From a virus: a DNA stretch of 64,000 bases. Below the pieces are notes generated by a model, which saw nothing but the letters and a program-made list of their open reading frames with translations, had not been told where the DNA came from and made no database searches. Location: positions 1 through 64,000 of the IMG/VR virus record IMGVR_UViG_3300049491_000418. The stretch is one strand, 5' to 3'. This document shows positions 12,614-63,919 of the stretch, in pieces. Position 1 is the stretch's first letter, and every line of letters starts with the position of its first letter. Position numbers and translations under genes: made by a program.

Positions 12614-13792
12614 ATGGCAGATTTTTCTATAACCACGCTCTTCGTAGTCCCTACTGGAACCACAACACTTCCTGCCTCAGGAAGCACACAGGACCTAGGT
12701 GCAGGAGCTTTCGGGTTTTTCAGAAATGACTACACTGTAGCTACAGCAGCTAACGTTGCAGCAGCTCCTTATTTCTACATTGCTCAAGGAAGACAAAATT
12801 CCTATTTGCAAGGAAGTAAGAGATCAGACAAGATTAAGGGATGCCCAACAGCAAACTGTAACTCTAACATCACTGAATTTTACAAAGTGGTAGGTTGTCC
12901 TACAGCAGCTGTACAAATTACTGATGTGTCTAACTGGACCGTACAATGCGGAGATGTTGTAACATTGACTCTTAGAGCTCACTCAAGCTACATTGATACA
13001 TTGTATTTCAATGGATTAACAAGATCAGTAACTGTTCAAGCACCTTGTTGTGATTGTGGAGCAGATCCTTGTGCTGATGTTGATGCTCAAGCATTAGTAG
13101 ATGCATTTATCTACAAATTACAACAACAAGCTCCAGGGAACAATCCTGATAATTCTTCTTTGAATAATTATTTTACATTCCAAAGAATTGGATCAGGTGC
13201 AGCTTCAATCTTAAGAATTACTGGAAAACCTTTAACAAAATATGGAGTACCATGTGATGTTGCTGCTTTCCCACATGAATATGATAGAATGTGGTTTAGA
13301 ACCTTTGTTTATGAAGGTCCTGCTACTACTGCAGATTTCATTGTAAATGATTCTTGTAATGAAGTAGCTGATGCTACCATTGTTCAAAGATCTTCTTATC
13401 CTACAGGAACTTCAGAAGAGATTAGACAATTGGAAAAAAACTATTACAGTTATCAAGCTGGATACCTAAAACATTTATACAGAATGGCAGGGTATAATCA
13501 AAACTTTGAATCATACGTGGTTGATGGTGCTGCTTATACTACTTACTACTTGAAGTATAATGAGATAGACAAAACAGCTTACAATTGGGGTGATTACATT
13601 CCAGAGGATCAAATGTCTATTATTGCAATCAATAATGCTGATGCAGCTTTGATTACTTTAGTTGATGCTTTCCTTGTGGCTGCCTTAGGTGCTACTGCTT
13701 CTGTTGCAATCAATGCTTGTATTACTACAACATCAACTACAACAGCAGCTCCTCCTGCAACAACAACAACAACTTCTACGCTTATTCCTTAA
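12614..13792 (+). CDS. Auxiliary capsid (cement/decoration) protein with C-terminal Thr-rich tail (gene 73-like)
   Basis: Synteny; high-expression codon usage in the 5' part; own downstream terminator; Cys-rich; ends CITTTSTTTAAPPATTTTTSTLIP. Confidence 0.65.
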   Translation: MADFSITTLFVVPTGTTTLPASGSTQDLGAGAFGFFRNDYTVATAANVAAAPYFYIAQGRQNSYLQGSKRSDKIKGCPTANCNSNITEFYKVVGCPTAAVQITDVSNWTVQCGDVVTLTLRAHSSYIDTLYFNGLTRSVTVQAPCCDCGADPCADVDAQALVDAFIYKLQQQAPGNNPDNSSLNNYFTFQRIGSGAASILRITGKPLTKYGVPCDVAAFPHEYDRMWFRTFVYEGPATTADFIVNDSCNEVADATIVQRSSYPTGTSEEIRQLEKNYYSYQAGYLKHLYRMAGYNQNFESYVVDGAAYTTYYLKYNEIDKTAYNWGDYIPEDQMSIIAINNADAALITLVDAFLVAALGATASVAINACITTTSTTTAAPPATTTTTSTLIP

Positions 13793-13812
13793 GAAAGAAG
13801 TAATGTATAACC

Positions 13813-13861
13813 AAATACCAGAGGTATGAGAGGATTCTCTGTCCTCTGGTATTTTTATTTT
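13813..13861 (+). terminator. Rho-independent terminator
   Basis: 12-bp stem AAATACCAGAGG (13813-13824) / CCTCTGGTATTT (13843-13854), followed by a T-rich run. Confidence 0.75.
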
Positions 13862-13868
13862 AAACAAG

Positions 13869-14432
13869 ATGGCTGTACTCAATTTAAAAATAGTTGTTCT
13901 TAGTACTCATGATGTTGAGTCAATAAATGTAGTGGATGCTTCAACATATCCTGATGAACCCCCTGTAGTAACTACTCCTATTTTGTTAGCTACTGCTCCT
14001 GGATTTAATCCAGTGTCTATTCCTTTTAATGTACAAGGTTATAACATACTTACTTCTGATTTATTAGGAATAACTGAAGCAGGTGAGTATCAACCTCTAC
14101 CAGATGGTATATATTACTTTAGTTATTCTATTTTTCCTTCTTCAGAAAACTTTACAGAAATAACTATTATGAGAGTAGATAAGTTACAGGAGAAGTTTGA
14201 TAGTGCTTTTATGACTTTAGATATGATGGTTTGTGATCAAGCTATTAAAACACAAGCTAAAGTAAATCTTAATACAATATATCTATTAATTCAAGGAGCT
14301 ATAGCAGCTGGTAATAATTGTGCTCTTATAGAAGCTAATAAGCTTTATGATAAAGCTTCAGCTATGCTAGATACAATGCTTAATAAGAATTGTGGATGTA
14401 CAGGTAATAATTTCATTGTAAACTATAACTAA
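13869..14432 (+). CDS. Putative tail hub/fibre-attachment protein
   Basis: Ig-like N-half with LPDGIYYFSYSI, helical Cys-containing C-half; lies between the auxiliary capsid gene and the fibres. Confidence 0.5.
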   Translation: MAVLNLKIVVLSTHDVESINVVDASTYPDEPPVVTTPILLATAPGFNPVSIPFNVQGYNILTSDLLGITEAGEYQPLPDGIYYFSYSIFPSSENFTEITIMRVDKLQEKFDSAFMTLDMMVCDQAIKTQAKVNLNTIYLLIQGAIAAGNNCALIEANKLYDKASAMLDTMLNKNCGCTGNNFIVNYN

Positions 14433-14433
14433 A

Positions 14434-14568
14434 ATGGCAACATGTGCAAAGTGCGGGGTAAGTGTGGGCTGTGGTTGTCAACTGACAAATGGATTATGTC
14501 CTGCATGTGTAAATAAGCAACAACAACAACCTAAACAAGATGTTAGCACCGAAAATAACAAAGTGTGA
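14434..14568 (+). CDS. Tiny Cys-rich protein (44 aa, 6 Cys), not in the ORF track
   Basis: MATCAKCGVSVGCGCQLTNGLCPACVNKQQQQPKQDVSTENNKV*; starts 2 nt after the previous stop. Confidence 0.65.
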   Translation: MATCAKCGVSVGCGCQLTNGLCPACVNKQQQQPKQDVSTENNKV

Positions 14569-14806
14569 GGAGTGCTCAGATATTTTACCATTAATTTCTG
14601 ATATTAATTGCAAAATATTTGAATTAAGCAAAAAACTATACAATAATATTGTATTCTCCTTAAATTTACATATAGATTATATAGCTATACAGGATTTACT
14701 TCATTATAAGAGAATTCTTGAGTATAAGCTTATAAATTCTAAGTATGCTGGTGATTATAGTGTAAATATGATAGCTACTAAAGTAAAACTTTTAAAATAT
14801 AAATAA
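14540..14806 (+). CDS. Small structural protein, putative second tail hub subunit
   Basis: 88-aa helical ORF in the tail module; function from synteny only. Confidence 0.45.
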   Translation: MLAPKITKCEECSDILPLISDINCKIFELSKKLYNNIVFSLNLHIDYIAIQDLLHYKRILEYKLINSKYAGDYSVNMIATKVKLLKYK

Positions 14807-14807
14807 G

Positions 14808-16730
14808 ATGGGATGCTGTAATAGTTCTAGTTCAGATCAAATAATTTATACAGGACCTACCTTAACCTGTATACCTCTGGCTACAAATGATAACCTTACA
14901 CTTGCTCTACAAAGAATTAATGAGAATTTTTGTTATTTACAACCAACAGATCCTCCTCCTTTAGATAAAATAAATGAAGGAAATGGGTTAGGTATTATAA
15001 TTAGAGGTAGAACATCTGCAAATTATGGTAATATTGGTTTAAATGCAGTAGATTTATCTTTTAATTCATCAGCTTCATCTACTACAGGAGCTACAGGATT
15101 AAGAGCATTTGCATCAGGATTTGAAACAATAGCAAGTGGTGAAAATGCAACTGCTTCAGGATGGGGAGCAGAAGCTACTGGTTTATCTTCAAATGCTGAA
15201 GGTATGTTTACAAGAGCTTATGGTAATGATGGTTCTCATGCAGAAGGCTATGACACTGAAGCTAGTGGTGAAAATGCACATGCAGAAGGTAATGGCACTA
15301 CAGCTAGTGGAAATGCTGCTCATGCAGAAGGAGGGGCTACAGAAGCAAGTGGTAGGTCATCTCACGCAGAGGGAGAGAGTACGTATGCAGAAGGTATAGC
15401 TTCTCATGTTGGAGGTACTTATTCTACAGCACAGGGAGATTATTCTTTTGCTAGGGGTACTAGTGTTACTGCATTAGGAAAGAATTCATTTGCACATGGA
15501 CAGACCTTAACATCATATTCTTTTGATGAAGCTGTGTTTGGAGCTTTTAATACAGACTATATACCTTTATCTGCAACTAGTTGGCAACCAACTGATAGAT
15601 TATTTGTAGTAGGGAATGGAGTAGCTACAGGCTCACAATCAGATGCAATGATTATATTAAAAAATGGTTTAGCTACTTTGCCTTCTGTTACTAATGCTTT
15701 AATAGCAGCAGGTTCAACTAAATCAATAGTAACTAGAGAGTATCTTGAGGCTAATATGGCAGTCACACCAGATGCTACAGCTGCTGTAAAAGGTAAATTA
15801 AAACTAACTAATGATTTAGGAGGTACTGCTGATTTACCAACTACTCCTACCGCACTGCATAAAACAACTAATGAATCTTGGACAGGAATTAAAAGTACTA
15901 CAAATACAGGTAGTGGATTAAATAATGGTCTTAAATTAATTAATAATGCTAATTTTGGTGGTAGTGCAATAGTAGATATTGAATGTAATGGAAATCACCC
16001 AGGAATACTTATTGTAGGGGATACTCCTTCATTTAGATTAATAGACCTTAGAACTAGTGCTACAGATTTTGGACCGTCAGCTTTATCTGTTACTATTGAT
16101 CCTGGATCTAATTCAAATGGTATAGAAATAAGTAATAATGGAAATATAGAAGCATTAAATATAGCAAGCTTTGGTAGTGCTGACTCTATTTATTCAGCAG
16201 CTATTAACGGGGATGCTATTACTTCTATAATAGGTATTGGTGACACAAATGGAACAGGATTTACATATGTTGGAAAGAATTATACAAACACTACTTTTAC
16301 TGTAAGTAAACTAGGAGCTATAACTGCTTCTGGTAATTTTCTTTCTACTGGTACGAATAATCAAATTATGGTTACTAATGGTGGAGGTGAAGGAGTAAGA
16401 ATGGGGGCATGTAGTAATAATGATGCTTTTCTTACAGGTTCAGTAACTGGAGACGGAGTTCTTATAGCACATCAAAAATTATTCTTAGCTGTAGGATTTG
16501 GAAGTATTCCAGTAGCATATACAGAAGCTGGTAATTTAGGAGTTGGAGTATATAACCCAACAGCTAAAGTAGATATAGCTCCAAGTTTATCAACTGCTGC
16601 TTCAATAAGAATAAGACAAGGAGTTGCACCAACTTCTCCTAATGATGGAGATATGTGGCTAGAAGACAATAGTTTAACTGGTCTTAAAATAAGGATAAAT
16701 GGAGTAACTAGAACTGTAAATCTAACTTAA
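14808..16730 (+). CDS. Tail fibre/adhesin with YadA-head-like (Hep/Hag) repeats
   Basis: N-terminal Cys anchor (YTGPTLTC); ~14-aa (S/A)HAEG repeats at about 15110-15510; DATAAVKGKLKL fibre repeat; GNLGVG motif. Confidence 0.8.
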   Translation: MGCCNSSSSDQIIYTGPTLTCIPLATNDNLTLALQRINENFCYLQPTDPPPLDKINEGNGLGIIIRGRTSANYGNIGLNAVDLSFNSSASSTTGATGLRAFASGFETIASGENATASGWGAEATGLSSNAEGMFTRAYGNDGSHAEGYDTEASGENAHAEGNGTTASGNAAHAEGGATEASGRSSHAEGESTYAEGIASHVGGTYSTAQGDYSFARGTSVTALGKNSFAHGQTLTSYSFDEAVFGAFNTDYIPLSATSWQPTDRLFVVGNGVATGSQSDAMIILKNGLATLPSVTNALIAAGSTKSIVTREYLEANMAVTPDATAAVKGKLKLTNDLGGTADLPTTPTALHKTTNESWTGIKSTTNTGSGLNNGLKLINNANFGGSAIVDIECNGNHPGILIVGDTPSFRLIDLRTSATDFGPSALSVTIDPGSNSNGIEISNNGNIEALNIASFGSADSIYSAAINGDAITSIIGIGDTNGTGFTYVGKNYTNTTFTVSKLGAITASGNFLSTGTNNQIMVTNGGGEGVRMGACSNNDAFLTGSVTGDGVLIAHQKLFLAVGFGSIPVAYTEAGNLGVGVYNPTAKVDIAPSLSTAASIRIRQGVAPTSPNDGDMWLEDNSLTGLKIRINGVTRTVNLT

Positions 16731-16760
16731 AAATAAAATATTAATTTTAAAATATCTAAA

Positions 16761-17834: not shown

Positions 17835-17845
17835 TACTTTTTATA

Positions 17846-19711: not shown

Positions 19712-19713
19712 TT

Positions 19714-24174: not shown

Positions 24175-24335
24175 TGAAAAAGTTACAGGTAATAGTAATA
24201 ATAGTAATCATCTTATTCTTTGTGATAGGATGTACTTCTATTATTATCTTTTCACCTACATTTGCACCAAGAACAAATGTTGAGATTAATAAAGATTCAA
24301 TTAAAAATAAAGACTCAATTAAAAAGAAATTATGA
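24171..24335 (+). CDS. Small putative lipoprotein (54 aa), not in the ORF track
   Basis: MMKKLQVIVIIVIILFFVIG-CTSIII...: basic n-region, hydrophobic h-region, lipobox VIG-C; ATGA overlaps with both neighbours. Confidence 0.65.
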   Translation: MMKKLQVIVIIVIILFFVIGCTSIIIFSPTFAPRTNVEINKDSIKNKDSIKKKL

Positions 24336-25099
24336 CAGTGTTTATAATATTTACAACAGTAGGAGCAGATGCTGGTCCTTTTAATCTCTATTCTAATGTA
24401 GGAGGTTATGCTATTGCTTTTGAAGTAGGAATAACAAAAGCTCAGTTGCTTGCAGGGTTTCCATCATCTAATGTTCCTTTAGGAACCAACATAATAAGAG
24501 CACAATCTTTTGGAGTTTGTACTAATTATGTAGATTTACCATTATTACCTGCTCCTACATCTACAACTACTACCTCTACAACTTGTGCAGGTTTTGAATA
24601 TACAATGGATATATATTGGTGTGGATTATGTACTCCTTCAGGAGGTGGTTCTATGAGTAATACAGAACCTCTTACAGTGGGTAAATGGTATTATGATAGT
24701 GTTATTAACTCTATAATTACTCCTACTAGTTTTGTTGGATGTAATCCTGGAACTAATAGAAGTATTTTAGATAGTACTAAACAAGATACATGTGCCGCAG
24801 TAATTTGTCCACCAACAACTACTACAAGTAGTACTACAACTCCTCCTGCTTATTTAGTAAATGTTAGTAACTCTACAGGATTTTCAAATTGTGATGGAGG
24901 TGGTGTAACTACCTATCCAATAGCATTATATGTTGAATTTGTTCCTATTATATTTGGTTCTGTTCTATATTATGATTTTGATTTAACTCTTCCTTTTGCA
25001 GGAGATGGAACTTGGTATAGTGTGAGTAGTACATTATCTTATAGAATTAATAATATAGGAGAGGTTACTGAAATAGATGATTGTGGTCCTCCTCCATGA
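24332..25099 (+). CDS. Putative virion decoration protein: GPF anchor domain + Thr linkers + small Cys beta-domains
   Basis: N-terminus AGPFNLYSNV; tracts PAPTSTTTTSTTC and CPPTTTTSSTTTPP. Confidence 0.65.
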   Translation: MTVFIIFTTVGADAGPFNLYSNVGGYAIAFEVGITKAQLLAGFPSSNVPLGTNIIRAQSFGVCTNYVDLPLLPAPTSTTTTSTTCAGFEYTMDIYWCGLCTPSGGGSMSNTEPLTVGKWYYDSVINSIITPTSFVGCNPGTNRSILDSTKQDTCAAVICPPTTTTSSTTTPPAYLVNVSNSTGFSNCDGGGVTTYPIALYVEFVPIIFGSVLYYDFDLTLPFAGDGTWYSVSSTLSYRINNIGEVTEIDDCGPPP

Positions 25100-25148
25100 T
25101 CATAGTGGATAGTATTAACTTATATAAAAATAATTTAAATATACTATA

Positions 25149-25751
25149 ATGACAGTATTATTAACATTAACAATAGCAGGAATAGATACAGGTCCTTTTG
25201 ATTTATACTCAAACGTGGATGGTTATTCTGTACCCTTTGAAACCAATATAAGTAAAGCAGCTTTACAAGGGGGATACTCCTCTGTATTGGTACCTGACTT
25301 TGCAATTGTTGTTAGAGTTGTGTCTAAAGGAGTATGTAATACTTATGTTGATATTGTTTTAGCCTCTCTTACAACTACAACATCTACAGCAGTACCTACC
25401 ACTACCACTACAACTACTTCAGGAGTAACTGTAGAATTTAGTGCAGCTTATACTCAAGCTTTAGAAGCACCTTTAGGAGATTCTGATGCTGGATTTTTAT
25501 CAGGTAACATAACAATAACAGGAGGTTCTGCAACATTCTTTGCTTTTGCTGAAATATTTGTAGATGCTGGAGTAGGTAGTAATTTCTTAACAGATATAGA
25601 TATAGCTGGAAACTTAGCAACTGCTTTTATAGATACTATTGGTATGGATACTTCTGCAGGAATTGTTTTAGGTCCAGGTATATATTCTTATACTATTGAT
25701 TTATCTGTAAACTCTGCTGATGGTGGAGGAGGTATTTCTTATACAATATAA
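25149..25751 (+). CDS. Putative virion decoration protein, paralogue of 24332 (GPF domain + Thr linker + beta domain)
   Basis: N-terminus TGPFDLYSNV; tract TTTTSTAVPTTTTTTTS. Confidence 0.65.
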   Translation: MTVLLTLTIAGIDTGPFDLYSNVDGYSVPFETNISKAALQGGYSSVLVPDFAIVVRVVSKGVCNTYVDIVLASLTTTTSTAVPTTTTTTTSGVTVEFSAAYTQALEAPLGDSDAGFLSGNITITGGSATFFAFAEIFVDAGVGSNFLTDIDIAGNLATAFIDTIGMDTSAGIVLGPGIYSYTIDLSVNSADGGGGISYTI

Positions 25752-25819
25752 TTGACATGTTTATTGGTTTACGTGTCAATAGGTTGTCCCTAGTGTAAAA
25801 AGCTAGGGATAACCATTTT
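25751..25819 (+). terminator. Tandem hairpins ending in a probable terminator
   Basis: ATTGACATGT/ACGTGTCAAT (25751-25780), then GGTTGTCCCTAG/CTAGGGATAACC (25782-25814) followed by ATTTT. Confidence 0.65.
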
Positions 25820-25883
25820 AGTTATAAATAATAATTATGATTATATGCAAACTATTTTTTAACTTTACCATATTTTATATATC

Positions 25884-26459
25884 ATGGCAAATAACAATGT
25901 TTCTTTAGAAAGAAGTTTAGAGATTAATTCTCCTGATTATTTACATAGATGTACAAAGTGTGGTATATTAAAACCAAATACTGAGTATTCTCCCTCTCCA
26001 AACAATAGAGTGATTAATAGTAGAGGTAGAAATTTTGTAACCTCGTGTAAATCGTGTAGAAATACTTATTCTTCTTCTAAAGAGGTATTAGAGAGAAAAA
26101 GACTTGCAGCACCAATAAGTAGACAAAAAAATAGAATAAATGTTATTTTTTGGTCTTCAGTTACTAATGCTAAAAAGAGAAATCTAGAGCATACTATAAG
26201 TATATTAGATTTAAAGGCTCTGTTTGAAGATCAATTAGGTCTGTGTTATTATACAGGAAAGCCAATGCTGAGAGATATTAGAGATATTAGTAGTAATGAT
26301 GATTCTGTATCTATAGATAGAGTTGATTCTTCTAAAGGATATACTAAAGAAAATATTGTTTTGTGTAGATGGGTAATCAATAGGATGAAAAATGATATAC
26401 CTTTTGATATTTTTTTAAAATTAATATCAGAAATTAATACTAAATTTAATATGTCATGA
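25884..26459 (+). mobile_element. Free-standing HNH-type (His-Me finger) homing endonuclease gene
   Basis: CTKCG...CKSC zinc finger; CYYTG...SIDRVDSSKGYTKENIVLC...INRMK nuclease motif; inserted between structural genes. Confidence 0.8.
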
Positions 26460-27181: not shown

Positions 27182-27182
27182 T

Positions 27183-27656: not shown

Positions 27657-27673
27657 TATAAAAACATCACATC

Positions 27674-28627: not shown

Positions 28628-28629
28628 TT

Positions 28630-31600
28630 ATGGCTGAGGATAAAGACAAAAACTTGAAAGGAGAAATTAACTTTGAGTTTGGACAAGGGTTTAAAGGTCT
28701 TAATATGGATAATATTCCTAGTCAAATTGATAAGGGATCACTATCCTATGCTTTAAATGCTGCTATTGAAAACTTTGATGCCAACAGTATCACTTATCAA
28801 AATGAACCAGGTACAGAATTTTGCTTAAAGTTTCCAAAAGATTACATCTTAATAGGAAAATATCTTATTACAGAACAAAGCAAACAAGTTTTCTTCCTAG
28901 CTAATCCTTCTACAGGAGATAGTGAGATTGGTTACATGGTAAACAATGATTGTATTTACCACACTCTTGTTAATGATAAATGTTTGAATTTTGATGTAAG
29001 ATATCCTATCCATAAGGTAGTACACAAAACAAGTAATTGTGATACAGAAATCTATTGGGCTCAACCAAATGCTGATAGGAGATATATCAATATGGATCCT
29101 ACTAAAATACCTTATTTAGCTTTACCAGACAGTACTCCATGTGATGAGAAATTGACACTACAATTAGATTGTAATCAATTAAGAGTACAACCAAACTTTG
29201 ATATTCCTGGAATTATTGTTAAAGATGTTATAATTGGTGGTAATATTATTGCTGGGGTATATCAATTTGCTTTTCAATATTCTGATGCTTTAGGAAATCC
29301 TCTTACCTCTTACTATAGTATAACTAACCCTACTCCCATAGCAGATCCACAGTTTGCTTCAGTTAATTTTAATTATCCTGTAGGTAAATCCATTATTGTA
29401 GGTATTACTAATATTGAAACTGGTGGACAGTTTGAGTATTTTAATCTTGCTGTAATTAAAACAATCAATGCTATTACATCAGTTGACTTAATAGGTACTT
29501 ATAATATAGATAGTGATCAAAAAGATATAACATATGCTGGGCAGAATGTTTCATTAATTAACTTAACAGTTAATAATATCTTTGAGAAGTTTCCTTTCTA
29601 TGGTCCTGCTGATGATGTAACAACAGCACAAGATGTTCTTATATGGAAAGGATTATCTACTCCAGAGAGAATAAGTTATCAATCTATAGCAAATCAAATA
29701 ACTCTATTGTGGGAAACTGTTAGGATTCCTGCAACAGAAAACTATGCTGATGAATTAAATGCCACACATTTAAGAGGGTATTTAAGAGATGAAGTATATC
29801 CATTTGAATTTGTTCCTTTATTGAGAAGTGGACAACAAGTTGATGGATTTCACATTCCAGGAAGAGCACTAACTCTATCAGAGATAGCTTTACCTGTTAT
29901 TGATATATCTAATGATGATTTTACTGAAGATCCAGAATTATATCCAGATGGAGCACCTTATTGGAAAATATATAATACTGCTAAAGTAATAGGTAATTCT
30001 CCAGGATTTTCAACAGCCAGTGACTATAAAGGTCCTTATAATTATGGAATAATGGCATACTGGGAATCTAATGAAACTTATCCTTGTGATGAAGAAATGT
30101 GGGGAGAACTAGCTTCTCAACCTATTAGACACCATAAGTTTCCAGATGTATTAGTATCTCCCATTATAGAATCAAAAACAAATCCTCTTAATCTTGCATT
30201 AGAGATGGGGAATGATGCTGTGTTTCCTATTGGAGTTAGAGTTGATATAGAACAAATTAAACTATTAATAAAAACATCCTCTCTTACTGATTTACAAAAA
30301 GCTGATATTGTTGGCTTTAAGATTGTTAGAGGAGATAGAACTGATAATAAATCTATTGTTGCTAAAGGAATCCTTAGAAATGTTGGTACTTATAAAAGAG
30401 ATGACCAAGAGTTCTACTATCCTAATTATCCATATAATGATTTACATGCAGATCCTTTTTTAAATAGTAATAATAATGCTTACAATAGTGCTGCTAAATC
30501 TTGGTTAGTTATCTGTTCTGAAACAGGAGTGTTACAAATAGGAGATCCAGATACCAATAAACCAACTAAAAGAAATATGATTGCAGGTACAACAGAAGAA
30601 ATCTGTTCTACTTCTAGACCAGTTTATTTATCTGGTAAAGCAAATATAGGTCCTGCAGAGTATGATGTATGGTATGTTTATGACCATGGTTGTCATGGTA
30701 GTAGAGTAAATTGGGTAGATCCATTTAGTGATATTAATGCTGCCAACACTTTAAGAAGTGATTGGATGGAATCTATTTTTGGTATTAGTCAAAATCAACT
30801 TTATTGTAGAGTTGCTGTAGGTGGAAATGTAGAGTTTGAGTGTGATAATGGTGGATTTTTTGATCCTTGTGAATGTACACCTGTTCAAGTTTTTAAACCA
30901 TACACAAGTCAACCTGTAGATGTTATAGATTCTGATGGTGGTGGAGAAAATGATCCTCATATAGGAAGAAGAACTTTAAACAACTGTGAAGGAAATACTC
31001 CATTAGCACCTATTTCTACTAATGATTCATTAAGATATAGACAGATATTTAACTCTCCTGAAACCTCTTTTGGACAACCATTCCTAGGAGACATACTAAA
31101 GGCAGAGAGTGTTATATATGGTGGAGGTTTAGCTCACTTTGTTGAAGTAAAAGATAATGCTAAGTATAGATTGTTAACTAAAGAAGCTCAACAAGATGCT
31201 TTGACATCTGCAGGAGAAGTTGGTAATGGTGATGCAGCTGCTACCTTTACAGCATACCAAGCTTATCTTGAAATATATATTAATGGTATTACAAGAAAGA
31301 ACTATGCTTATTCTTTTAATTCTATAGCTGATTATAATTACTCTACTTCTATACCTAATGAACAAGGTATTAAACAAAGAAGACTTGACCTAAGAAGATA
31401 TCTTATCCCAGCAGTTCAAAATGTTGGAGAGAATGATATTGATATAAATAATTATCAAAGAGAATCATCTGTATATCTAAGAACAGATTTAGATATTGAC
31501 CCTCTTCCTTTCCCACATTTGAGTCCTAATATGATTCCTATTAATATTCAGGATATATCAAGATTCACTACAGGCTGTAGTGGTAGTACTACTTGTGTAG

Positions 31601-34251
31601 ATACATCTATGACAACTACAACTACAACTACATTCTATGTTCCTTATTGCCCTGGTTCATGTGCTGAGCCTGCCAAGAAACTACCTATTCAGGTTGTATC
31701 TTATTATGCTTCATTAAAAAATACATTTAGAGGACAGTGGGGACAAATTTATAGTTATCAAACTATTGATACTGGTTTTCAGGTAAATTTAGAAAATGAA
31801 GGTTCTGCTACCAAGATAGTTTTTGGTGGAGATACTTTTATCTCTAGGTTTGCTTTTAAAACTAAAGTTCCTTTCTTTATTGATAATAGAGTTGGAGCTC
31901 CTCAAGATAGTGAGGTATTTTATGATGAGTTAGGTAATATAGGTTATCCTAAATATTGGCATTCTTCTAGATCTATTTTAGAAGATTTTAATGTACCTGT
32001 TTTAGGAAACATGACTAATATTATTACTTACAAGGCACATAACTTTGATTGTCCAAATTGTCAAACAGTACCTGCAGTAGCTAATCCAAATAGAACTTTC
32101 TATGATGGTATATTTTATTTGTTTGCCTATGGAATACCTAACTTTTATGTTGAGACTAGTTATAATGTTGATTTAAGACAAGCTTTCAATAATAAGGAAG
32201 GAGACTTTTGGCCACATGTAAGTAATAGTATTCCTGATGATTGGGTACAAGAAAGTTTTGTAACTATTGCACAGGATAATACCTATTATTATAATGGATC
32301 ATTCTCTAAACAAAACACAGAGAATTATTTCTCTCATATACCAGCAAATTTTGAATTTGATGATTGTACTAGTAATTATCCATTTAGAGCTATATTTTCA
32401 GATCCTCAAATAGCTACAGCAGATACTACAGTTAATAACTGGTTGACATATAGAGCAAGTGCTTATTTTGATTTTCCTCAAAACTATGGGGCACTAACTT
32501 CATTGGATGGAATTGATAAAGGACAAGTATTGGCAAGATTTGAAAACAAAGCTTTATTATATAATGCATTATATACAACTCAAACAAATACAAATGGACA
32601 AGTTTATTTAGGACAATCATTGTTTACTAGACAACCACCTCCTTATGATTATGTAGAAACTGATTTAGGTTATTTAGGAAGTCAACATAAGTTTCTTCTT
32701 AAAATACCTCAAGGTCAAATAACTATTGATGCTAAGAGAGGTCAAGTGTTCCTTATGAACAATACTAAGGCACAAGATCTTTCAGCACCTGGTTCAGGTA
32801 TGAATAGATTCTTTACAGATCATTTGGCCTTTGAGATATTGAGATATTTTCCTAATGTTAATATTGACAACAATTTTAATAGAATAGGTCTTCATGGTGT
32901 ATATGATAGCAAATTTGATAGAGTTATTATAACCAAGCTTGATTATATTCCTTTAAGTACTGATATTGTATTTGATATGGATTCTCAGTCTTTCTATAAA
33001 GAGACTCAGGCAGAGATTGGTGTGTTTAAAGAACCAATTTCTGTAAATAATCCTGTTTACTTTTGTAATAAATCATGGACTATCTCTTATAGCTTTATTA
33101 CCAATAGTTGGTTATCTTTTCATAGTTATATACCTAATTGGTATATTGGTGAAAATAACTTTTTCTATTCTGGTAAAAAATCTTGTTGTGAACCTTTTAA
33201 ATTTTTAGCAGGAGAGATTATTGCAAATCCTTTAACAACCACAACAACAACTGCTTTCCCATTACCACCAACTACAACATCTACTACAACTATTGCTTTA
33301 GATTGTACATTGATTGGTGTGGCACAAGGAACTAGCTGTGAATTAGAAGGAACAGGTATAATAACCATACCTCCTCCAGGGCCTCCATGTACAAGACCTT
33401 CAGGATTAGATCCATTTGCATTATACACAGGTTACAATGTAATAGCTCCTCCTTCTTCAGTGGTTTCTACAGCTAGTTTTAGTGAAGCATGTAATGCTAA
33501 GTCATATATGTTGTATAATCTTGTCAATGTAACTCCTACTACTATAATAGGTTGGACAACTTCATTAGTTGTTGGTGTTACTGTATATGCTAATAATGCT
33601 ACTCAAGATTGTGAAGTTATACCAGATGGATTCTATTTCACACCTATAACTTTAGATGGTATTTATGAAGTTGTTAATGGTGTTATTGTATCAATAACTC
33701 CATGTAGTTTAACCACTACAACAACATCATCTTCCACAACTACAACTACAACTACAGCATTCCCAGTAATCCCTTGTAATTCATTAGTATCTTCTGGTGG
33801 AGTGGGTATAACAGAATACATAGTAGCTCTTGTATCAGAGGGTGGAACAGTAGCAATGGCATTAAATGCTGTAAGTGTTCCTGATAAATTAGAGATACTT
33901 CATAATGGTATTAAAAAAGCTACCTCAGGAATGACAACTCCTAATGAGGGACCATTTGATAACTTATATGGAGATCCTACAATTCCAACTGTACCTGAGA
34001 CAAATGCTACAGATCAATTTATTGGAACATCTAAAGGAACTATTCCTAATAGACAAGCTACATTTGCATCTGAAACAGGTTCAGGATTAATTATACCAGG
34101 AAGTTATCAACAAATAATCTGGTGGGAATACACTAATGCAGATTTTCTAATAAATCCTGTAGCAGTTATTAGAGTTACAGGTCCTGATACTACAGCTTGG
34201 GAGATACAAAGAATGTGTGAAACAACAACAACTACCACAACAACACCATAG
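28630..34251 (+). CDS. Muzzle/tail stabilisation protein, N-terminal and main part, with appended Thr-rich and adhesin-like modules
   Basis: 1873 aa; GLNMD...YALNA N-terminus, RGYLRDEVY, IRHHKFP, FGGDTFISRF and SWTISY...WLSFHSYIP motifs typical of the crAss-like Tstab; four poly-Thr tracts. Confidence 0.75.
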   Translation: MAEDKDKNLKGEINFEFGQGFKGLNMDNIPSQIDKGSLSYALNAAIENFDANSITYQNEPGTEFCLKFPKDYILIGKYLITEQSKQVFFLANPSTGDSEIGYMVNNDCIYHTLVNDKCLNFDVRYPIHKVVHKTSNCDTEIYWAQPNADRRYINMDPTKIPYLALPDSTPCDEKLTLQLDCNQLRVQPNFDIPGIIVKDVIIGGNIIAGVYQFAFQYSDALGNPLTSYYSITNPTPIADPQFASVNFNYPVGKSIIVGITNIETGGQFEYFNLAVIKTINAITSVDLIGTYNIDSDQKDITYAGQNVSLINLTVNNIFEKFPFYGPADDVTTAQDVLIWKGLSTPERISYQSIANQITLLWETVRIPATENYADELNATHLRGYLRDEVYPFEFVPLLRSGQQVDGFHIPGRALTLSEIALPVIDISNDDFTEDPELYPDGAPYWKIYNTAKVIGNSPGFSTASDYKGPYNYGIMAYWESNETYPCDEEMWGELASQPIRHHKFPDVLVSPIIESKTNPLNLALEMGNDAVFPIGVRVDIEQIKLLIKTSSLTDLQKADIVGFKIVRGDRTDNKSIVAKGILRNVGTYKRDDQEFYYPNYPYNDLHADPFLNSNNNAYNSAAKSWLVICSETGVLQIGDPDTNKPTKRNMIAGTTEEICSTSRPVYLSGKANIGPAEYDVWYVYDHGCHGSRVNWVDPFSDINAANTLRSDWMESIFGISQNQLYCRVAVGGNVEFECDNGGFFDPCECTPVQVFKPYTSQPVDVIDSDGGGENDPHIGRRTLNNCEGNTPLAPISTNDSLRYRQIFNSPETSFGQPFLGDILKAESVIYGGGLAHFVEVKDNAKYRLLTKEAQQDALTSAGEVGNGDAAATFTAYQAYLEIYINGITRKNYAYSFNSIADYNYSTSIPNEQGIKQRRLDLRRYLIPAVQNVGENDIDINNYQRESSVYLRTDLDIDPLPFPHLSPNMIPINIQDISRFTTGCSGSTTCVDTSMTTTTTTTFYVPYCPGSCAEPAKKLPIQVVSYYASLKNTFRGQWGQIYSYQTIDTGFQVNLENEGSATKIVFGGDTFISRFAFKTKVPFFIDNRVGAPQDSEVFYDELGNIGYPKYWHSSRSILEDFNVPVLGNMTNIITYKAHNFDCPNCQTVPAVANPNRTFYDGIFYLFAYGIPNFYVETSYNVDLRQAFNNKEGDFWPHVSNSIPDDWVQESFVTIAQDNTYYYNGSFSKQNTENYFSHIPANFEFDDCTSNYPFRAIFSDPQIATADTTVNNWLTYRASAYFDFPQNYGALTSLDGIDKGQVLARFENKALLYNALYTTQTNTNGQVYLGQSLFTRQPPPYDYVETDLGYLGSQHKFLLKIPQGQITIDAKRGQVFLMNNTKAQDLSAPGSGMNRFFTDHLAFEILRYFPNVNIDNNFNRIGLHGVYDSKFDRVIITKLDYIPLSTDIVFDMDSQSFYKETQAEIGVFKEPISVNNPVYFCNKSWTISYSFITNSWLSFHSYIPNWYIGENNFFYSGKKSCCEPFKFLAGEIIANPLTTTTTTAFPLPPTTTSTTTIALDCTLIGVAQGTSCELEGTGIITIPPPGPPCTRPSGLDPFALYTGYNVIAPPSSVVSTASFSEACNAKSYMLYNLVNVTPTTIIGWTTSLVVGVTVYANNATQDCEVIPDGFYFTPITLDGIYEVVNGVIVSITPCSLTTTTTSSSTTTTTTTAFPVIPCNSLVSSGGVGITEYIVALVSEGGTVAMALNAVSVPDKLEILHNGIKKATSGMTTPNEGPFDNLYGDPTIPTVPETNATDQFIGTSKGTIPNRQATFASETGSGLIIPGSYQQIIWWEYTNADFLINPVAVIRVTGPDTTAWEIQRMCETTTTTTTTP

Positions 34252-34253
34252 TC

Positions 34254-36985: not shown

Positions 36986-36996
36986 TTAAAGTAATT

Positions 36997-43109: not shown

Positions 43110-43111
43110 TC

Positions 43112-57127: not shown

Positions 57128-57131
57128 TACT

Positions 57132-60100: not shown

Positions 60101-62027
60101 TGAGTTAAAGAACTTCTTTAAAGATTTATATACTGTTAGAGAGTCTGAAGAGCAAATTTTCTCTAAAAAAGATTCAGAAACAGGAGAAATTAAGAAATCT
60201 ATACCAAAACACTTCACAAAACAAGGAAATCTTGCTACAGAAAGACTTTCTACTGATTTAAACAAGGTAGGGGCACTCTGGATCAAAGCTTTAATGGATT
60301 ATGAAGCCAAACAATCAATTGAGAATACCCTATTAACTATTCAGGCTGTTGAAAGAGCTAAAGGAAGTCTTGTTGTTAATGAACAAGGTGATTTAGTTAG
60401 TGAAGGGGGTAAGTTTGTTGTTAATAAATCTGTAAATAAGAATGCAGATATAATGGAAGCCATCTTAAATGATGCTATATATGATTTGCAGGAAGACTTA
60501 GGGAATATTGGTAACATTACTATCCAAAAAACAGCAAACAAACTTGGTAAAACAGCTGAAGGTAAAGAAAACCTAAATGTATCTATTAAAAAAGGACTTA
60601 AGAATGCTGATACTCTTACTAGAGCTCTTGCTGTTGGTCTAAAACCATTAATTGGTTTGGCTAACTGGATGGGTTATAATTTACATGCTGTTATTACAGG
60701 AGGTAATATGTATACTGTTGCAGAATTTATGAAAAACAATGCAAGAGTAACTGTATTTGGAGGACTCTCATTAGAACATAAAGCTCTATTACACTTAGTA
60801 ACTACTGCTCCTGATGATGAGATGACAGAGATGAGAAGAAAAGCAGCCAGAGAAAAAAGTCTAATATCTTATCTTTCCACATGGTCATTCAGTGATGTTA
60901 TGATGCTCACTAACTCTTTCCCTGAAAGAAAATTAGCTTTAGCTAGCGCTAAAAGCTTTAATGACAATGCTATAATAATTGATGGTAAGATTGTAAATGC
61001 CAGACAATATCTTAGAAAACAAGATAGATCTCAAAAATATAAGTTATCTCCTTCTGAAAGAAAGGTTCTTGAAAGATCCTTTGATGATAGAGTTAAATCT
61101 TTATTAGAATCTTCAACCAAGTTAACTTCAGCTGTTAAAGTAACAGATGAAAAGATTACAATTGAAGGAGTATTAGAAGATGAGATTGTAAAATATAGTT
61201 TGAAAGTATCTGAATTTTCCAGAAACATGAATGGCTCTATGAACATAGATAACAAAGCTGGTTATAGAAGAGATACCATGTTCAGTTCATTTATGATGTT
61301 TAAGAACTGGATCCCTAAATTATTAATTTCTAGAACAGGAGAGATAAAATATAACCTTGAAACAGAAGATTGGGAGTATGGTAGAATGAGAGCATTTGCT
61401 AAGGTATTTGCTGATAGTGGCTTTAGTGTTATTAAGAATATGAGAGCAATTATAACAGGTTCTCCTGAAGGACTAGCTATCCTTGATAGACTTCTACAGG
61501 AAAAGAAAGATGCATACTTTGAAAAAACTGGTCAAGAGTTAGAAATAACTGAAGAGGAGTTTTATGATTTAATGAGAAGAGAACTTGTTAATGAAGCCAA
61601 AGAACTTGGTATGTTATTTACCACATTTGCTATGGCAGCTATGATAGGTTTTATAAAACCACCTGAAGATGCTACAAATGATGAAAAAAATAAATGGAAG
61701 TTATGGGCTAAAGCATCTAATAAGATAGCGGAAGAACTTAGTTTTTATTATAGTCCTTTATCTATGGAAAGTATTACTAAAGGAAGTATATTACCTTCTT
61801 TAGGTTTATTAACAAAAGCATGGAGATTTTTTACAGCATTTAGTAAAGAATCTTATGGATATACAACAGGAGATGAAGAACTAATGGATAAAACATATCC
61901 TATTAAGTATTTCTTTAATTTAATACCTGGATTGGCTCAATTTCAAAATGATTATCTTCCATACATTGATGCAGAACTTGCTAAAGAGATGGGTATAAGA
62001 GTTACAGTAGAAGCCAGAAGACAATAA
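57132..62027 (+). CDS. Giant internal virion protein with degenerate zincin and PD-(D/E)xK-like domains
   Basis: 1631 aa; LTEEMVHIA...KKEAVDKL; G..GH..IE...E...STIDF...DILDWK; helical C-terminus typical of the gene after the RNAP in crAss-like phages. Confidence 0.65.
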   Translation: MSCKIQIKENITQVIEKKTSGATEKPLEEAQAIGIEVNSQFGVDVVSFSQTPDYLVKRTISIPDSLVDIYYDNEVALEESEKASIVETPSIVPTSKATSETLIKVKEVMQQMKVSFQLLHDYAKGNPAIETKDVSGLADLSAGVIAVAQGSESATLTEEMVHIATAILEQTDPKLITSLISKIERFKIYKLTYDAYKGNKNYQLSNGKPDIRKIKKEAVDKLIAEYIVKQSQGNSDFPELTEQRERNLVQSWWDSILEYLRSLYGKSKVDLFAQAADHIMSGNIGTIEDIKAQGVYYQLGTDAVGDNPLVDKFVNIINDIDSRMKLDPNPSDRHYTLDGERVATSVTEKIGKSKNLPDRTPEQKISDDQKKTWGSEGHMYIEKYIKTNLIDQDGFKKPFTNSLINTTLDSEAQEKLNRFAENLINSYPKGTRFLIEKKAVNQREKGMLGSTIDFIAVYPAKKVDGSPDVNIDILDWKFTDIDKSIEEDVPYVKQKDWKPQMGEYTKMMYEYGFKPGQIKKARMIPFIMNYDNIVKGDRKSGLRPTSIEIGKVDSLTETNLYLLPVPINSESTGNDAIDDLLKSLRGYWEKMYSKQVIPEARATKLIHLNQLSKAIRILHVTLNFAPLVSVGKTFISTSRASLDSFKGVDYTKLSKEQIEAKLQDLIEFKNTALNFASLDEAYISHYGDVNLTDEANKILLGLKAVSANAKSKLKEILELQKEYVAQIAVRENFVNENNKTSLFDAEKEIGALIKNFVEGSRLPAKLINFASNLIMRVKRSAEKRFIEKFDEFKKVLLPLEEEASRQGKRAFDMIGTVDKTGLHLIKKVDKKFWTDVKDAKEKGKENKKFLMDNMDMEKFNSLAKEAINKGVEELKLIEFSMDKEKDDYIRSGKIKRLRKSVDINREDFNGYNEYLFNHIFRQVVKADDHLSEEYKQMSKSKASLDAWNFFTAMNEKARDIGYIDKQGMSFFPLIEASIVDKFRQTSNAGVELKNFFKDLYTVRESEEQIFSKKDSETGEIKKSIPKHFTKQGNLATERLSTDLNKVGALWIKALMDYEAKQSIENTLLTIQAVERAKGSLVVNEQGDLVSEGGKFVVNKSVNKNADIMEAILNDAIYDLQEDLGNIGNITIQKTANKLGKTAEGKENLNVSIKKGLKNADTLTRALAVGLKPLIGLANWMGYNLHAVITGGNMYTVAEFMKNNARVTVFGGLSLEHKALLHLVTTAPDDEMTEMRRKAAREKSLISYLSTWSFSDVMMLTNSFPERKLALASAKSFNDNAIIIDGKIVNARQYLRKQDRSQKYKLSPSERKVLERSFDDRVKSLLESSTKLTSAVKVTDEKITIEGVLEDEIVKYSLKVSEFSRNMNGSMNIDNKAGYRRDTMFSSFMMFKNWIPKLLISRTGEIKYNLETEDWEYGRMRAFAKVFADSGFSVIKNMRAIITGSPEGLAILDRLLQEKKDAYFEKTGQELEITEEEFYDLMRRELVNEAKELGMLFTTFAMAAMIGFIKPPEDATNDEKNKWKLWAKASNKIAEELSFYYSPLSMESITKGSILPSLGLLTKAWRFFTAFSKESYGYTTGDEELMDKTYPIKYFFNLIPGLAQFQNDYLPYIDAELAKEMGIRVTVEARRQ

Positions 62028-62032
62028 TTTAC

Positions 62033-62040
62033 TATATTTG
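62033..62040 (+). promoter_or_regulatory. Bacteroidota -7 promoter box (TATATTTG) for the fibre/poly-Thr/glycosyltransferase unit
   Basis: Exact TAnnTTTG match in the 36-nt intergenic gap, ending 24 nt before ATG 62064. Confidence 0.6.
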
Positions 62041-62063
62041 TACAACTTAATTAATTAATAATC

Positions 62064-62693
62064 ATGGGAACACCAAGCAAACAAATTGGATGGAGTCAGG
62101 AATCAAACCTACTTCATGCAATATTAAGACAACTTGATCAACTTGCTGGCGTAATAGCTGTCAGTGGAGGAGGTGGACTAGATAACTTTGTTACTCTAAA
62201 TACAGTCCAACCTATTGTTGCAAGGAAAGATTTCTCTGTAGTTGCAGGACCTGCATCTACTTTTACATCTTCTACTGGAAATACAGTGAATGTTACTGCC
62301 ACTACTGGTAGTGGTGTATATAGTACATCTGTTGATGGCCCAGCTATAGAAGGATTTTCAGTTAATGATCCAGGTATTTTTGGGTATTCCAGTAATAGTG
62401 CTGGTGTATTTGCTCACTCACAGAACTTTGTTGCTCTTATTGTAGACTCTTTAAATCCAGGGAACCTTAGTGATTTAGCTAATTTTAATCTTAATGGAGT
62501 ACCTGCAGTTAGAATTACTAATAATGGTAAATTAAGTCTAAAAGCTTCTACAACATTAGCTGCAGTATTAAATTTACCTGTAGGAGTTGCTCCTACTGCT
62601 CCTGCTGATGGAGACATTTGGTTAGAGAGCACTGCTTTAACAGGGTTAAAAATAAGATTAGGTGGAGTAACTAGAACTTTAACTATAACATAA
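62064..62693 (+). CDS. Short fibre/decoration protein (QIGWSQE anchor + beta-solenoid + tip domain)
   Basis: N-terminus KQIGWSQESNLL; G-rich 11-aa repeats; C-terminus similar to that of fibre 14808. Confidence 0.65.
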   Translation: MGTPSKQIGWSQESNLLHAILRQLDQLAGVIAVSGGGGLDNFVTLNTVQPIVARKDFSVVAGPASTFTSSTGNTVNVTATTGSGVYSTSVDGPAIEGFSVNDPGIFGYSSNSAGVFAHSQNFVALIVDSLNPGNLSDLANFNLNGVPAVRITNNGKLSLKASTTLAAVLNLPVGVAPTAPADGDIWLESTALTGLKIRLGGVTRTLTIT

Positions 62694-62830
62694 TGTCATA
62701 TATCCCACGCCAGATAGGATGGTCTCAGGAGGCAATCCTATTGCAGAAAATATTGAAGAAGTTGATAGGTATTACTAAACTTGCAGCAGCTGCAAGCCCA
62801 GCAACTACAACTACTACAACTACACTATAA
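62693..62830 (+). CDS. 45-aa QIGWSQE-anchor peptide with poly-Thr tail, not in the ORF track
   Basis: MSYIPRQIGWSQEAILLQKILKKLIGITKLAAAASPATTTTTTTL*; TAATG overlap with the previous gene; paralogous N-terminus. Confidence 0.8.
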   Translation: MSYIPRQIGWSQEAILLQKILKKLIGITKLAAAASPATTTTTTTL

Positions 62831-62851
62831 TAAACCAATAAATAACTAAAT

Positions 62852-63919
62852 ATGAGAGAGCTAGCCTTCATTACGGCATGCCCAGATGATACTTACTTTA
62901 CATGGCAAGTACATTTGTGGCTTGAAAGTTTAAGAGAGATTGGGAAATCAGATAAAGCAGTAGTGCTTGTTTTTACTCCAGTCTTTAGGGATCAAAACCC
63001 TAAGTGGGAACAAATTGTGGACTTATATCCAGAAGCTGTTTTTAATTTTTACAAAGATGAAGATAACATCTCTTCTTTATTAGGAATTTATATTCCAGTG
63101 TTAAGACCTTATCTTATGTGGAGATTTCTTAAGGAAAATCCTGTATACACAAGTAAGGCATTGTTTTATTGTGATAGTGATATTCTCTTTACAGAGAAGT
63201 TCAATGTTGATGATTTCTTAGAAGATGATATTAATTACCTATCAGATACTAATAGCTATATAAATGCTGATTACTTTGATAGTAAAGTAAAAGATGTTCT
63301 TCCTGAGAAATTAGAAGAATACAAAACAAGAGATATCCTTGGTGAAGTAACCAGTTTAATTGGTATCACAAGGGAAATCTGTGAAGCAAATAATAAGAAC
63401 TCTGGAGGGGCTCAATATTTGCTAAAGAACATGGATAGTTCTTTCTGGTCTAAGGTTATGAATGACTGTATAATCATTAGAACCTATTTACTAAAAATAA
63501 ATAGAGAATTCTTTAAAGATGAGAATGCAGGATTTCAAAGTTGGTGTGCTGACATGTTTGCTGTTCTTTGGAACATTTGGTTAAGAAAACAGGAAACAAA
63601 AGTTATACCTGAATTAAATTTTGCTTGGTCTACTGATCCTATAGAAAAACTTCAAGAGACTACCATCTTGCATAATGCAGGAATTGTAGGAGAGTTTCAA
63701 ACTACTGGAACAAGTCACAAAATGACTAAGTCTGGAATGCTTACAGTACATGAGGGTTATAATGCCTTTTACAAGGGTAAGTATCATCAAGGATCAGATC
63801 CTATGATGGATCCACACTTAGACAAAGTATTAAATGATACTAACTCTCAGAAACATTGCACTTGGTTTTATGCCAAGAAATTAAAAGAATTAAGTAACAA
63901 ATTTCAATTACAGTACTGA
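62852..63919 (+). CDS. GT-A fold glycosyltransferase resembling plant protein O-glycosyltransferases (GT96 SERGT1 / GT95 HPAT)
   Basis: DxD motif LFYCDSDILF; YFTWQ; YIPVLRPY; GGAQYLL; WCADMFAV; ILHNAG; no signal peptide. Confidence 0.75.
   Translation: MRELAFITACPDDTYFTWQVHLWLESLREIGKSDKAVVLVFTPVFRDQNPKWEQIVDLYPEAVFNFYKDEDNISSLLGIYIPVLRPYLMWRFLKENPVYTSKALFYCDSDILFTEKFNVDDFLEDDINYLSDTNSYINADYFDSKVKDVLPEKLEEYKTRDILGEVTSLIGITREICEANNKNSGGAQYLLKNMDSSFWSKVMNDCIIIRTYLLKINREFFKDENAGFQSWCADMFAVLWNIWLRKQETKVIPELNFAWSTDPIEKLQETTILHNAGIVGEFQTTGTSHKMTKSGMLTVHEGYNAFYKGKYHQGSDPMMDPHLDKVLNDTNSQKHCTWFYAKKLKELSNKFQLQY

Follow-up and report, generated by a model that had tools for sequence, protein, structure and literature searches.

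To our knowledge, measurements of virion glycosylation in phages are limited to a few mycobacteriophages, and the study of Freeman et al. 2023 (Cell Host Microbe 31:1216) reportedly deals with such glycosylation. In this study, which was based on comparative genomics and structural models, we analysed the first 64 kb of the 106,775-bp IMG/VR virus record IMGVR_UViG_3300049491_000418 (this stretch of 64,000 nucleotides is referred to as the window; the whole genome is 106.8 kb), and we propose that a glycosyltransferase (GT) encoded by the open reading frame (ORF) 62852 of this phage O-glycosylates poly-Thr tags on the virion proteins in the cytoplasm, a reading to which we assign a probability of about 0.78. 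Virion glycosylation of the mycobacteriophages Che8, Corndog and Myrna is described in citing papers (PMC12619734, PMC12363180). As far as these citing papers describe the system, phage-encoded GTs modify their own particle at the C-termini of the capsid and tail-tube proteins, as is proposed here, and shielding from antibodies, which is the role proposed there, is likewise a candidate here. However, Che8 gp108-110 are unlike the product of ORF 62852 (BLASTP E >= 0.5, negative profile scores), and the capsid and tail-tube proteins of Che8 end in ...FNKTGS and ...AEQYSDGS, with no poly-Thr. Moreover, the acceptor in our case appears to be a repetitive, portable tag that is also present in internal linkers and in dedicated microproteins, and the poly-Thr system is shared by phages from Bacteroidota, Firmicutes and Actinomycetota.

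The serine-rich-repeat adhesins of Gram-positive bacteria are glycosylated in the cytoplasm by GtfA/B and by GT8-type extenders such as GlyE (PDB 5gvv). The likeness to the system proposed here is functional; soluble cytoplasmic GTs modify the long hydroxy-amino-acid repeats in a surface protein step by step, and the GT8-fold GlyE is among the best structural matches of the ORF 62852 product, P0001 (Z 12.9). That pathway, however, involves Ser-rich repeats, accessory Sec export and a GT-B initiator (GtfA), whereas here there are pure Thr repeats, virion assembly and a GT-A as the sole conserved enzyme. The A64R protein of the chlorovirus PBCV-1 is a virus-encoded cytoplasmic GT-A that glycosylates the major capsid protein (MCP) without host machinery, and P0001 matches it at Z 11.4. 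Unlike the phage considered here, PBCV-1 is a eukaryotic virus whose glycans are N-linked, at atypical sites, and it has no poly-Thr tag. The plant and algal enzymes HPAT (GT95) and SGT1 (GT96) are predicted GT-A enzymes that glycosylate hydroxy-amino-acid repeats, as would P0001, but the plant enzymes are Golgi membrane proteins, whereas P0001 is soluble and gave no match to the HPAT hidden Markov model. A literature search returned nothing on this GT family or on virion glycosylation in crAss-like phages, which agrees with the initial annotation of the window, where no such description was known.

The glycosyltransferase family and its poly-Thr partners

P0001 had no match in the Pfam, NCBIfam or PDB sequence searches and matched phrog_4417 ("unknown function") at E 3e-53. 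Its homologues numbered more than 1500 at 90% clustering, with 735 representatives at 50% clustering. For its AlphaFold2 (AF2) model, which had a predicted local distance difference test score (pLDDT) of 97.5, Foldseek and VIA-align agreed on retaining GT-A enzymes. More than 100 PDB chains were matched at Z >= 8, the top-ranked being GT8, GT24, GT6 and other GT-A enzymes, while nucleotide-sugar enzymes that are not GTs (IspD, nucleotidyltransferases) entered the list from about Z 10.5 down. In addition to GlyE and the capsid-glycosylating A64R, the matches included glycogenin (Z 14.7, root-mean-square deviation 3.8, 230 aligned residues), LgtC (Z 14.3), the Skp1 alpha-galactosyltransferase (Z 14.0), UGGT (Z 13.9) and a bacterial GT6 (Z 12.3). 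Among these nearest folds, glycogenin, the Skp1 enzyme, UGGT and GlyE have proteins, or glycans linked to proteins, as their substrates in the cytoplasm or the endoplasmic reticulum. The residues D108 and D110, which form a DSD motif, and H274 were invariant in 85 diverse homologues as well as in a set of 16 sequences, and from their position we infer that they act as metal and nucleotide-sugar ligands. P0001 has no membrane segment. Elsewhere, members of the family are fused to methyltransferase, GT2, GT6, GT32-like, N-acetylglucosamine-transferase and O-FucT domains. The fold, the catalytic motifs and the domain fusions together indicate a glycosyltransferase that is embedded in glycan-building contexts. 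Judging by the model, ORF 62852 encodes a bona fide GT-A glycosyltransferase from a large phage family that has no Pfam model, and its GT8-like fold suggests a retaining (alpha) linkage.

With the retaining enzymes of GT8, GT24 and GT6, P0001 shares the fold (Z 13.9-14.7 over 218-245 residues), the DxD motif and a C-terminal His, but it is 6-13% identical to them in sequence, gave no match to the Pfam GT8 model and carries an additional beta-hairpin and helical region at its C-terminus; by sequence it falls outside all three families. Membership of CAZy GT8 was rejected since the Pfam model Glyco_transf_8 was negative for P0001 at E <= 0.1 and for the 85 family members at E <= 0.01, the likeness being one of fold only. 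GT95 found no support either; its profile, PF23452, was negative in the genome, in the 85 family members and in the fused bacterial forms. Against the genome it gave no match at E <= 10 (the control genomes were also negative), and the DUF7164 profile (PF23741) had no match in the genome either. The longer homologues of P0001 were phage or bacterial fusions only, with no plant-type protein among them, and the sole hint of HPAT came from an automatic Atlas neighbour cluster in which 10% of the members carry the HPAT Pfam model. The initial annotation had proposed a soluble DxD glycosyltransferase of a "GT96/GT95-like" type that is tied to exposed poly-Thr tracts. The soluble DxD enzyme is borne out by the invariant DSD motif and the GT-A fold, and the tie to the tracts by the comparative genomics presented below, while the GT95/GT96 label found no support, as the HPAT profile was negative and the nearest solved folds were those of GT8, GT24 and GT6.

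The pairing of the GT with poly-Thr proteins was assessed in a distant set of 12 cultured phage lineages, whose GTs are 27-37% identical to P0001. In 12 of 12, genes for capsid, tail-tube or small decoration proteins with a poly-Thr end adjoin the GT gene or are only a few genes away from it. In Chryseobacterium phage MA9V-3, the two genes upstream of the GT carry tracts of 23 and 63 residues; in Enterococcus phage phiFL2A, both the tail-tube and the capsid proteins are tailed and the GT follows the tail-tube gene; in Lactococcus phage 1706, the capsid protein ends in ...KTTTTTTTTTHHD, the tail-tube protein ends in ...VTTTTTTTTTTHHD and the GT is the next gene. T7 repeats end both of the genes upstream of the GT in Lactobacillus phage Semele, and Lacticaseibacillus phage R3.3 has the GT and a tail-tube protein with a poly-Thr tail. 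Poly-Thr virion proteins were also found beside the GT in Clostridium phiCTP1, Staphylococcus PMBT8, Lactococcus bIL285, Lactobacillus phage iLp84, Enterococcus VPE25, Enterococcus 4995_1 and Arcanobacterium TPWB06. Additionally, a poly-Thr ORF precedes the short phage-type homologues in prokaryotic bins by 22-151 nt, and one distant crAss-like contig has a poly-Thr muzzle protein directly upstream of the GT. A spread of the GT that is independent of poly-Thr, which the initial annotation had named as an argument against its proposal, was not observed among the phage-type homologues.

The tail-tube orthologues of phiFL2A gp48, which are 50-60% identical, revealed that the tail and the GT vary together; the tail is absent in four phages without the GT (Streptococcus phiGBSVK, Javan505 and Javan235 and Lactobacillus phiJL-1) and present in R3.3, which carries it. 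The (ACN)7 pattern had no occurrence in five GT-less genomes (those four and Leptolyngbya phage Lbo-JY46) and was found in most of the GT-carrying genomes, with the two exceptions bearing T6 tails. These data bear on an alternative in which the tracts are unmodified, extended, protease-tolerant linkers and the GT acts on a host envelope glycan, on phage DNA or on a small molecule. Thr-rich linkers are common in the proteins of Bacteroidota, and the fused bacterial homologues of the GT, which have no poly-Thr neighbours, resemble polysaccharide enzymes; both would fit with plain linkers. However, this explanation is hard to reconcile with the joint presence and absence of GT and tail in orthologous tail-tube proteins. 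Moreover, the pairing recurs in all 12 unrelated lineages, including those with Gram-positive hosts, in which Thr linkers are no habit, and the GT is one of the genes of the structural operon, often with the tail-tube gene on one side and the chaperone gene on the other, a place where genes for DNA modification or lysogenic conversion do not sit. The lack of a membrane segment in the GT and of a visible hypermodified-base pathway in the phage also speaks against it, and we consider it unlikely. DNA glycosylation and lysogenic conversion as such were rejected because the GT is found within structural genes and co-varies with the poly-Thr tails.

Within the lineage of the window, 80 related contigs with GTs that are 56-74% identical were compared. 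Poly-Thr ORFs directly flank the GT in about 76 of the 80, and they belong to two families, A upstream and B downstream. The family A proteins have an M.IPS(K/R)QIGWS..NLLWQISKQLE anchor helix that is followed by T7 alone (44-57 aa) or by T7 and a small Cys-rich domain. Family B, which is often duplicated, has a ..LKAFVRFDGSGRIVAGSLILRKNKPKVGKW.EI.AYECCN domain, then (T7-AAP)n and sometimes a C-terminal domain; its N-terminal domain was found just downstream of the GT in 74/80 loci. An alignment-based search for further loci in viral contigs yielded close relatives only, and a search that started from the distant homologue P0174 yielded no loci.

In the window, the 45-aa ORF 62693, which is a family A microprotein, ends 21 nt before the start of the GT, with no terminator-like site found between them. 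This agrees with the apparent operon of the last poly-Thr gene and the GT that had been proposed initially. In many related contigs, an orthologue of the 45-aa ORF (44-57 aa) immediately precedes the GT, and the short family A ORFs have a dN/dS of about 0.28 over 72 pairs; this purifying selection indicates that the 45-aa ORF is a real gene. The GT belongs to a late, plus-strand unit with tight gene spacing, the first terminator of which is located past the window (genome 66463-66492).

Thr tracts in the virion proteins

The plus strand of the window contains a crAss-type late module with a P22-like portal, the MCP, the ring proteins, the muzzle, tail fibres with an S74-chaperone domain and giant ORFs of 4671 and 1631 aa. 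Pfam matches were obtained for Crass_capsid (E 2.8e-28), crAss_MUZ (E 2.4e-33), CrAss_Ring_1 and CrAss_Ring_2. The phage is Crassvirales-like, with the crAss-type MCP, muzzle, ring proteins and auxiliary capsid protein all present. Copies of its MCP were found on more than 590 (about 600 or more) IMG/VR viral contigs, the best 80 at 89-97% identity, and the single cultured relative in the phage collection searched was Lbo-JY46 (26% identity). The lineage is thus very abundant and has no cultured member in that collection. The host is probably an environmental member of Bacteroidota, because the closest GT copies in binned genomes belong to Cytophagales, Saprospiraceae and Sediminibacterium bins; the contig that carries one of these copies is 112 kb long.

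All of the ORFs of the window were scanned by script for tracts with Thr or Ser at six or more of seven positions, which revealed 12 tracts in five late-strand proteins (Table 1). The ORFs 14808, 19714 and 62064 had weaker Ser/Thr patches, and no tract was found in the terminase, the portal, the MCP, the giant ORFs 43112 and 57132 or the other large ORFs. Genome-wide, using a strict definition (at least 6 T of 7) and 200 within-protein shuffles as the null, there were 17 Thr tracts compared to a shuffle mean of 0.26 (maximum 2). Thr alone behaves in this way, with no other residue over-represented in runs, and the tracts are on the plus (late) strand without exception. Their codons (ACA 52, ACT 45, ACC 12, ACG 1) resemble the Thr codon use elsewhere, and such a mixture indicates that the tracts are not DNA-slippage repeats. 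Most of them are bracketed by Cys and/or Pro. These results align well with the initial annotation, which had placed the tracts at the same positions (its nine correspond to our 12, adjacent pairs having been merged), had found the terminase, portal and MCP free of them, had favoured selection at the protein level over slippage and had noted the Cys/Pro brackets.

The C-terminus of ORF 12614 reads C-I-TTTSTTT-AAPPA-TTTTTST-LIP. Its AF2 model has medium confidence (pLDDT 67.6) with a disordered tail, and its top PDB match was 7qof_a (E 3.3e-8), a 333-residue capsid chain of PhicrAss001, followed by FliD cap proteins. The gp36 of PhicrAss001 is an auxiliary capsid protein of 333 residues with a FliD-like domain, nine copies of which per T=9 asymmetric unit form the outer layer of the capsid wall (Bayfield et al. 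2023, PMC10172136). By its length and its FliD-like domain, the chain 7qof_a is gp36. On the strength of the model, ORF 12614 can be regarded as a homologue of this outer-layer protein, so that the fold supports what had earlier been guessed from synteny. By analogy, about 540 copies would be present on the particle, and every copy would have two T7 tracts. The tail C-x-T7-x4-T7-(S)TLIP was kept in 118 of 120 homologues, and this conservation in an outer-layer protein indicates that the capsid tags are numerous, external and under selection. The (S)TLIP sequence always closes the tail after the second tract in the 120 homologues; the extreme C-terminus seems to have a conserved role of its own beyond that of a tag, perhaps docking.

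The tracts of the muzzle (1873 aa) are located in its C-terminal half and at its extreme C-terminus, past the Pfam-matched part that joins the ring and forms the propeller. In five complete relatives, the muzzle orthologues have 2-26 tracts each and tracts recur in the orthologues of ORF 12614 too, while in ORFs 14540, 24332 and 25149 they follow conserved N-terminal modules and the distal domains are variable. Such conserved N-terminal modules with variable distal domains are the architecture that is expected of exposed, modular appendages. In the relatives of ORF 24332, the N-terminal 76 aa are conserved ahead of differing C-terminal parts; the N-terminal domain of ORF 25149, which has a weak PHROG tail match, precedes poly-Thr and variable C-terminal domains in five related genomes. 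Cys richness also marks the tract-bearing virion proteins between 12614 and 34251; there are 11 Cys in ORF 12614, nine in ORF 24332 and 33 in the muzzle, unlike the portal, the MCP and the giant ORFs, which have 0-5. This suggests disulfide-stabilised exposed modules, and the tail of PhicrAss001 likewise uses disulfides.

The position of the tracts within the proteins is relevant to a narrower alternative, in which only the terminal tails and microproteins are glycosylated, for assembly, quality control or protection of the terminus rather than as a coat, and the internal tracts of the muzzle and fibres are plain linkers. The tags of the phages of Gram-positive bacteria are all C-terminal tails, families A and B, the most conserved partners in this lineage, also end in a tract, and the capsid tail has its fixed ...STLIP end. 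The internal tracts, however, share the T7 unit and the Cys/Pro brackets with the terminal ones and multiply in the GT-carrying relatives, up to 26 in one muzzle orthologue. Moreover, in MA9V-3 and in three further distant loci (L289-L291), proteins with internal tracts lie directly upstream of the GT. A restriction to the termini therefore seems improbable to us.

Proposed glycosylation of the virion

According to the mechanism that we propose, late in infection the soluble, metal-dependent GT-A would take a nucleoside diphosphate sugar of the host in the cytoplasm and O-glycosylate the Thr runs of newly made virion proteins, which would serve as portable acceptor tags. These would be the C-terminal tail of the outer-layer auxiliary capsid protein, the linkers and C-terminus of the tail-tip muzzle, the linkers of modular fibre or decoration proteins and the dedicated "anchor + poly-Thr" microproteins that are encoded on either side of the GT gene. 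Their modification would give the head, tail tip and fibres a mucin-like brush of glycans, which might shield the virion from proteases, antibodies or host surface nucleases, stiffen the linkers or promote adhesion. In this genome only, an accessory GT6 and a S-adenosylmethionine (SAM) methyltransferase, the genes of which overlap about 3 kb downstream of the GT, would probably extend and cap the glycan, although this step is speculative.

A broader version of this proposal is that some 6-10 Thr residues are a sufficient, transplantable acceptor tag for one small family of soluble GTs, that enzyme and tag were exchanged together across phages of at least three bacterial phyla and that, in this crAss-like lineage, the system was expanded into a mucin-like coat (the ~540-copy capsid protein, muzzle, fibres and microproteins), which is finished here by the ABO-type GT6 and the methyltransferase to give a host- or mucus-like surface. 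We put this version forward tentatively and regard it as somewhat likelier to fail than to hold.

Several observations weigh against the proposed glycosylation or limit its reach. Glycosylation, with Thr as the putative acceptor, is proposed here on the basis of genes and models. In phiFL2A (L084:20001-20817), the frame of the GT looks broken near its 3' end while the poly-Thr tails are intact; this homologue is unannotated, stops after about residue 250 and was recovered as two tblastn pieces, and the copies in phiFL1A and phiFL2B are intact. The chromosomal fused homologues of Sphingobacterium, Chitinophaga and Pedobacter have no poly-Thr neighbours, which signifies that the fold family is not restricted to a role with tracts; the long fused forms of Sphingobacteriia and Chitinophagia look like polysaccharide enzymes and mark a limit of the association. 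Two short homologues from delta-proteobacterial/Myxococcales bins also had no strict tract nearby. The linkage within the lineage could partly reflect a frozen gene order because the MCPs are closely similar across it; the loci that were collected by MCP are all at least 89% identical and offered no GT-less member as a control, and the nearest cultured MCP relative, Lbo-JY46, served as a GT-less control instead. No sugar-nucleotide genes were found among the ten larger minus-strand ORFs scanned, all of which encode replication or repair proteins. Finally, the GT6 and methyltransferase genes were present in 0-1 of 49 related loci, which makes them accessory and the extension step genome-specific and speculative; as a conserved part of the system they were rejected. 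Proteins that fuse the GT family with GT6 do tie GT6 to the same pathway. The initial annotation had suggested looking for more GT genes past 64 kb, where the GT6 is located.

It is highly improbable that the family A and B genes encode leader-plus-core precursors, like those of ribosomally synthesised and post-translationally modified peptides, which the GT tailors into a released glycopeptide; a conserved "leader" at the N-terminus, Cys residues (ECCN) and a core of repeated Thr beside a modifying enzyme, together with a radical-SAM/SPASM enzyme right after the GT in two distant loci, are reminiscent of such precursors, but the same N-terminal modules precede folded C-terminal domains that are typical of fibres and decorations, genuine capsid, tail-tube and muzzle proteins bear the tags, there is no linked protease or exporter and a search for the radical-SAM partner in the lineage of the window found none.

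Our finding of a GT that is paired with poly-Thr virion proteins suggests a second, unrelated and far more widespread system of virion glycosylation, which consists of one enzyme family and a simple poly-Thr tag. Very abundant crAss-like phages from the environment carry the pair, as do well-studied phages that infect Enterococcus, Lactococcus, Lactobacillus, Staphylococcus and Clostridium. If the proposal is true, it would alter how virions appear to hosts, mucus, proteases and antibodies, with relevance for phage therapy and for dairy phages, it would explain the puzzling low-complexity tails of phage structural proteins and it would provide a function for PHROG 4417 and its more than 1500 relatives. 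Moreover, it would offer a minimal, genetically encoded enzyme-and-tag pair for cytoplasmic O-glycosylation in engineered bacteria and biotechnology.

Genes around the glycosyltransferase

Table 1. Positions of the capsid, tract-bearing and glycosyltransferase-linked features (window coordinates, unless given as genome coordinates)
Feature	Position	Strand	Thr tracts	Basis
MCP	9161-10723	+		Crass_capsid
Predicted auxiliary capsid protein homologue	12614-13792	+	13721-13747, 13757-13783	AF2 fold match, synteny; tracts by script
255-aa Cys-rich virion-module protein	24332-25099	+	24554-24586, 24812-24844	Script
200-aa protein, double tract after a conserved ~70-aa N-terminal domain	25149-25751	+	25365-25391, 25395-25424	Script
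Muzzle (tail-tip) protein	28630-34251	+	31603-31635, 33232-33255, 33268-33294, 33706-33759, 34219-34248	crAss_MUZ; tracts by script
209-aa protein, family A anchor and Gly/Ser/Thr-rich C-terminal domain	62064-62693	+		Shared N-terminal motif
45-aa "anchor helix + T7" microprotein, family A	62693-62830	+	62801-62827	Sequence, orthologues; tract by script
Predicted soluble GT-A glycosyltransferase, P0001, 355 aa	62852-63919	+		phrog_4417, AF2 fold
GIY-YIG/NUMOD3 homing endonuclease	genome 63919-64632 (L002:1920-2633)	+		Between GT and family B gene
Family B protein, 199 aa, 26% Thr	genome 64659-65258 (L002:2660-3259)	+		Past window
DUF5856 protein, then two small ORFs	after family B gene			Past window
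Probable bidirectional terminator, 12-bp GC-containing hairpin	genome 66463-66492 (L002:4464-4493)			Flanking A-runs and T-runs
SAM methyltransferase	genome 66475-67125	-		Overlaps GT6 gene
GT6 with FDSD motif	genome 67118-67915	-		PF03414 E 1.4e-15, above cut-off

Upstream of the GT, the ORF 62064 and the 45-aa ORF share the N-terminal anchor QIGWSQE..LL..I..QL. In the relatives of ORF 62064, poly-Thr and variable Cys-rich domains come after the same anchor, and it is likely a small fibre or decoration protein. Downstream, the start of the homing endonuclease gene overlaps the stop of the GT by 1 nt, and a homologue was found at this place in only 7/80 related loci. The hairpin past the window lies between the convergent late (plus-strand) and early (minus-strand) modules and is probably a bidirectional terminator.

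In two distant phage-type loci from Flavobacteriia bins, a radical-SAM/SPASM enzyme is encoded directly after the GT (L290:8906-9952 and L291:7006-8055), and in L291 it is followed by a PF11051 mannosyltransferase-like gene. Together with the Cys-bracketed tracts, the radical-SAM enzymes raise the question whether the peptide or the sugar is modified further. The family B protein of this genome has a conserved N-terminal domain of about 48 aa that ends in ECCN, followed by eight Thr tracts. It is unusually long and has a C-terminal tail of poly-Asp and (Gly-His)/(Asp-Val) repeats; a metal-binding or highly acidic appendage is possible.

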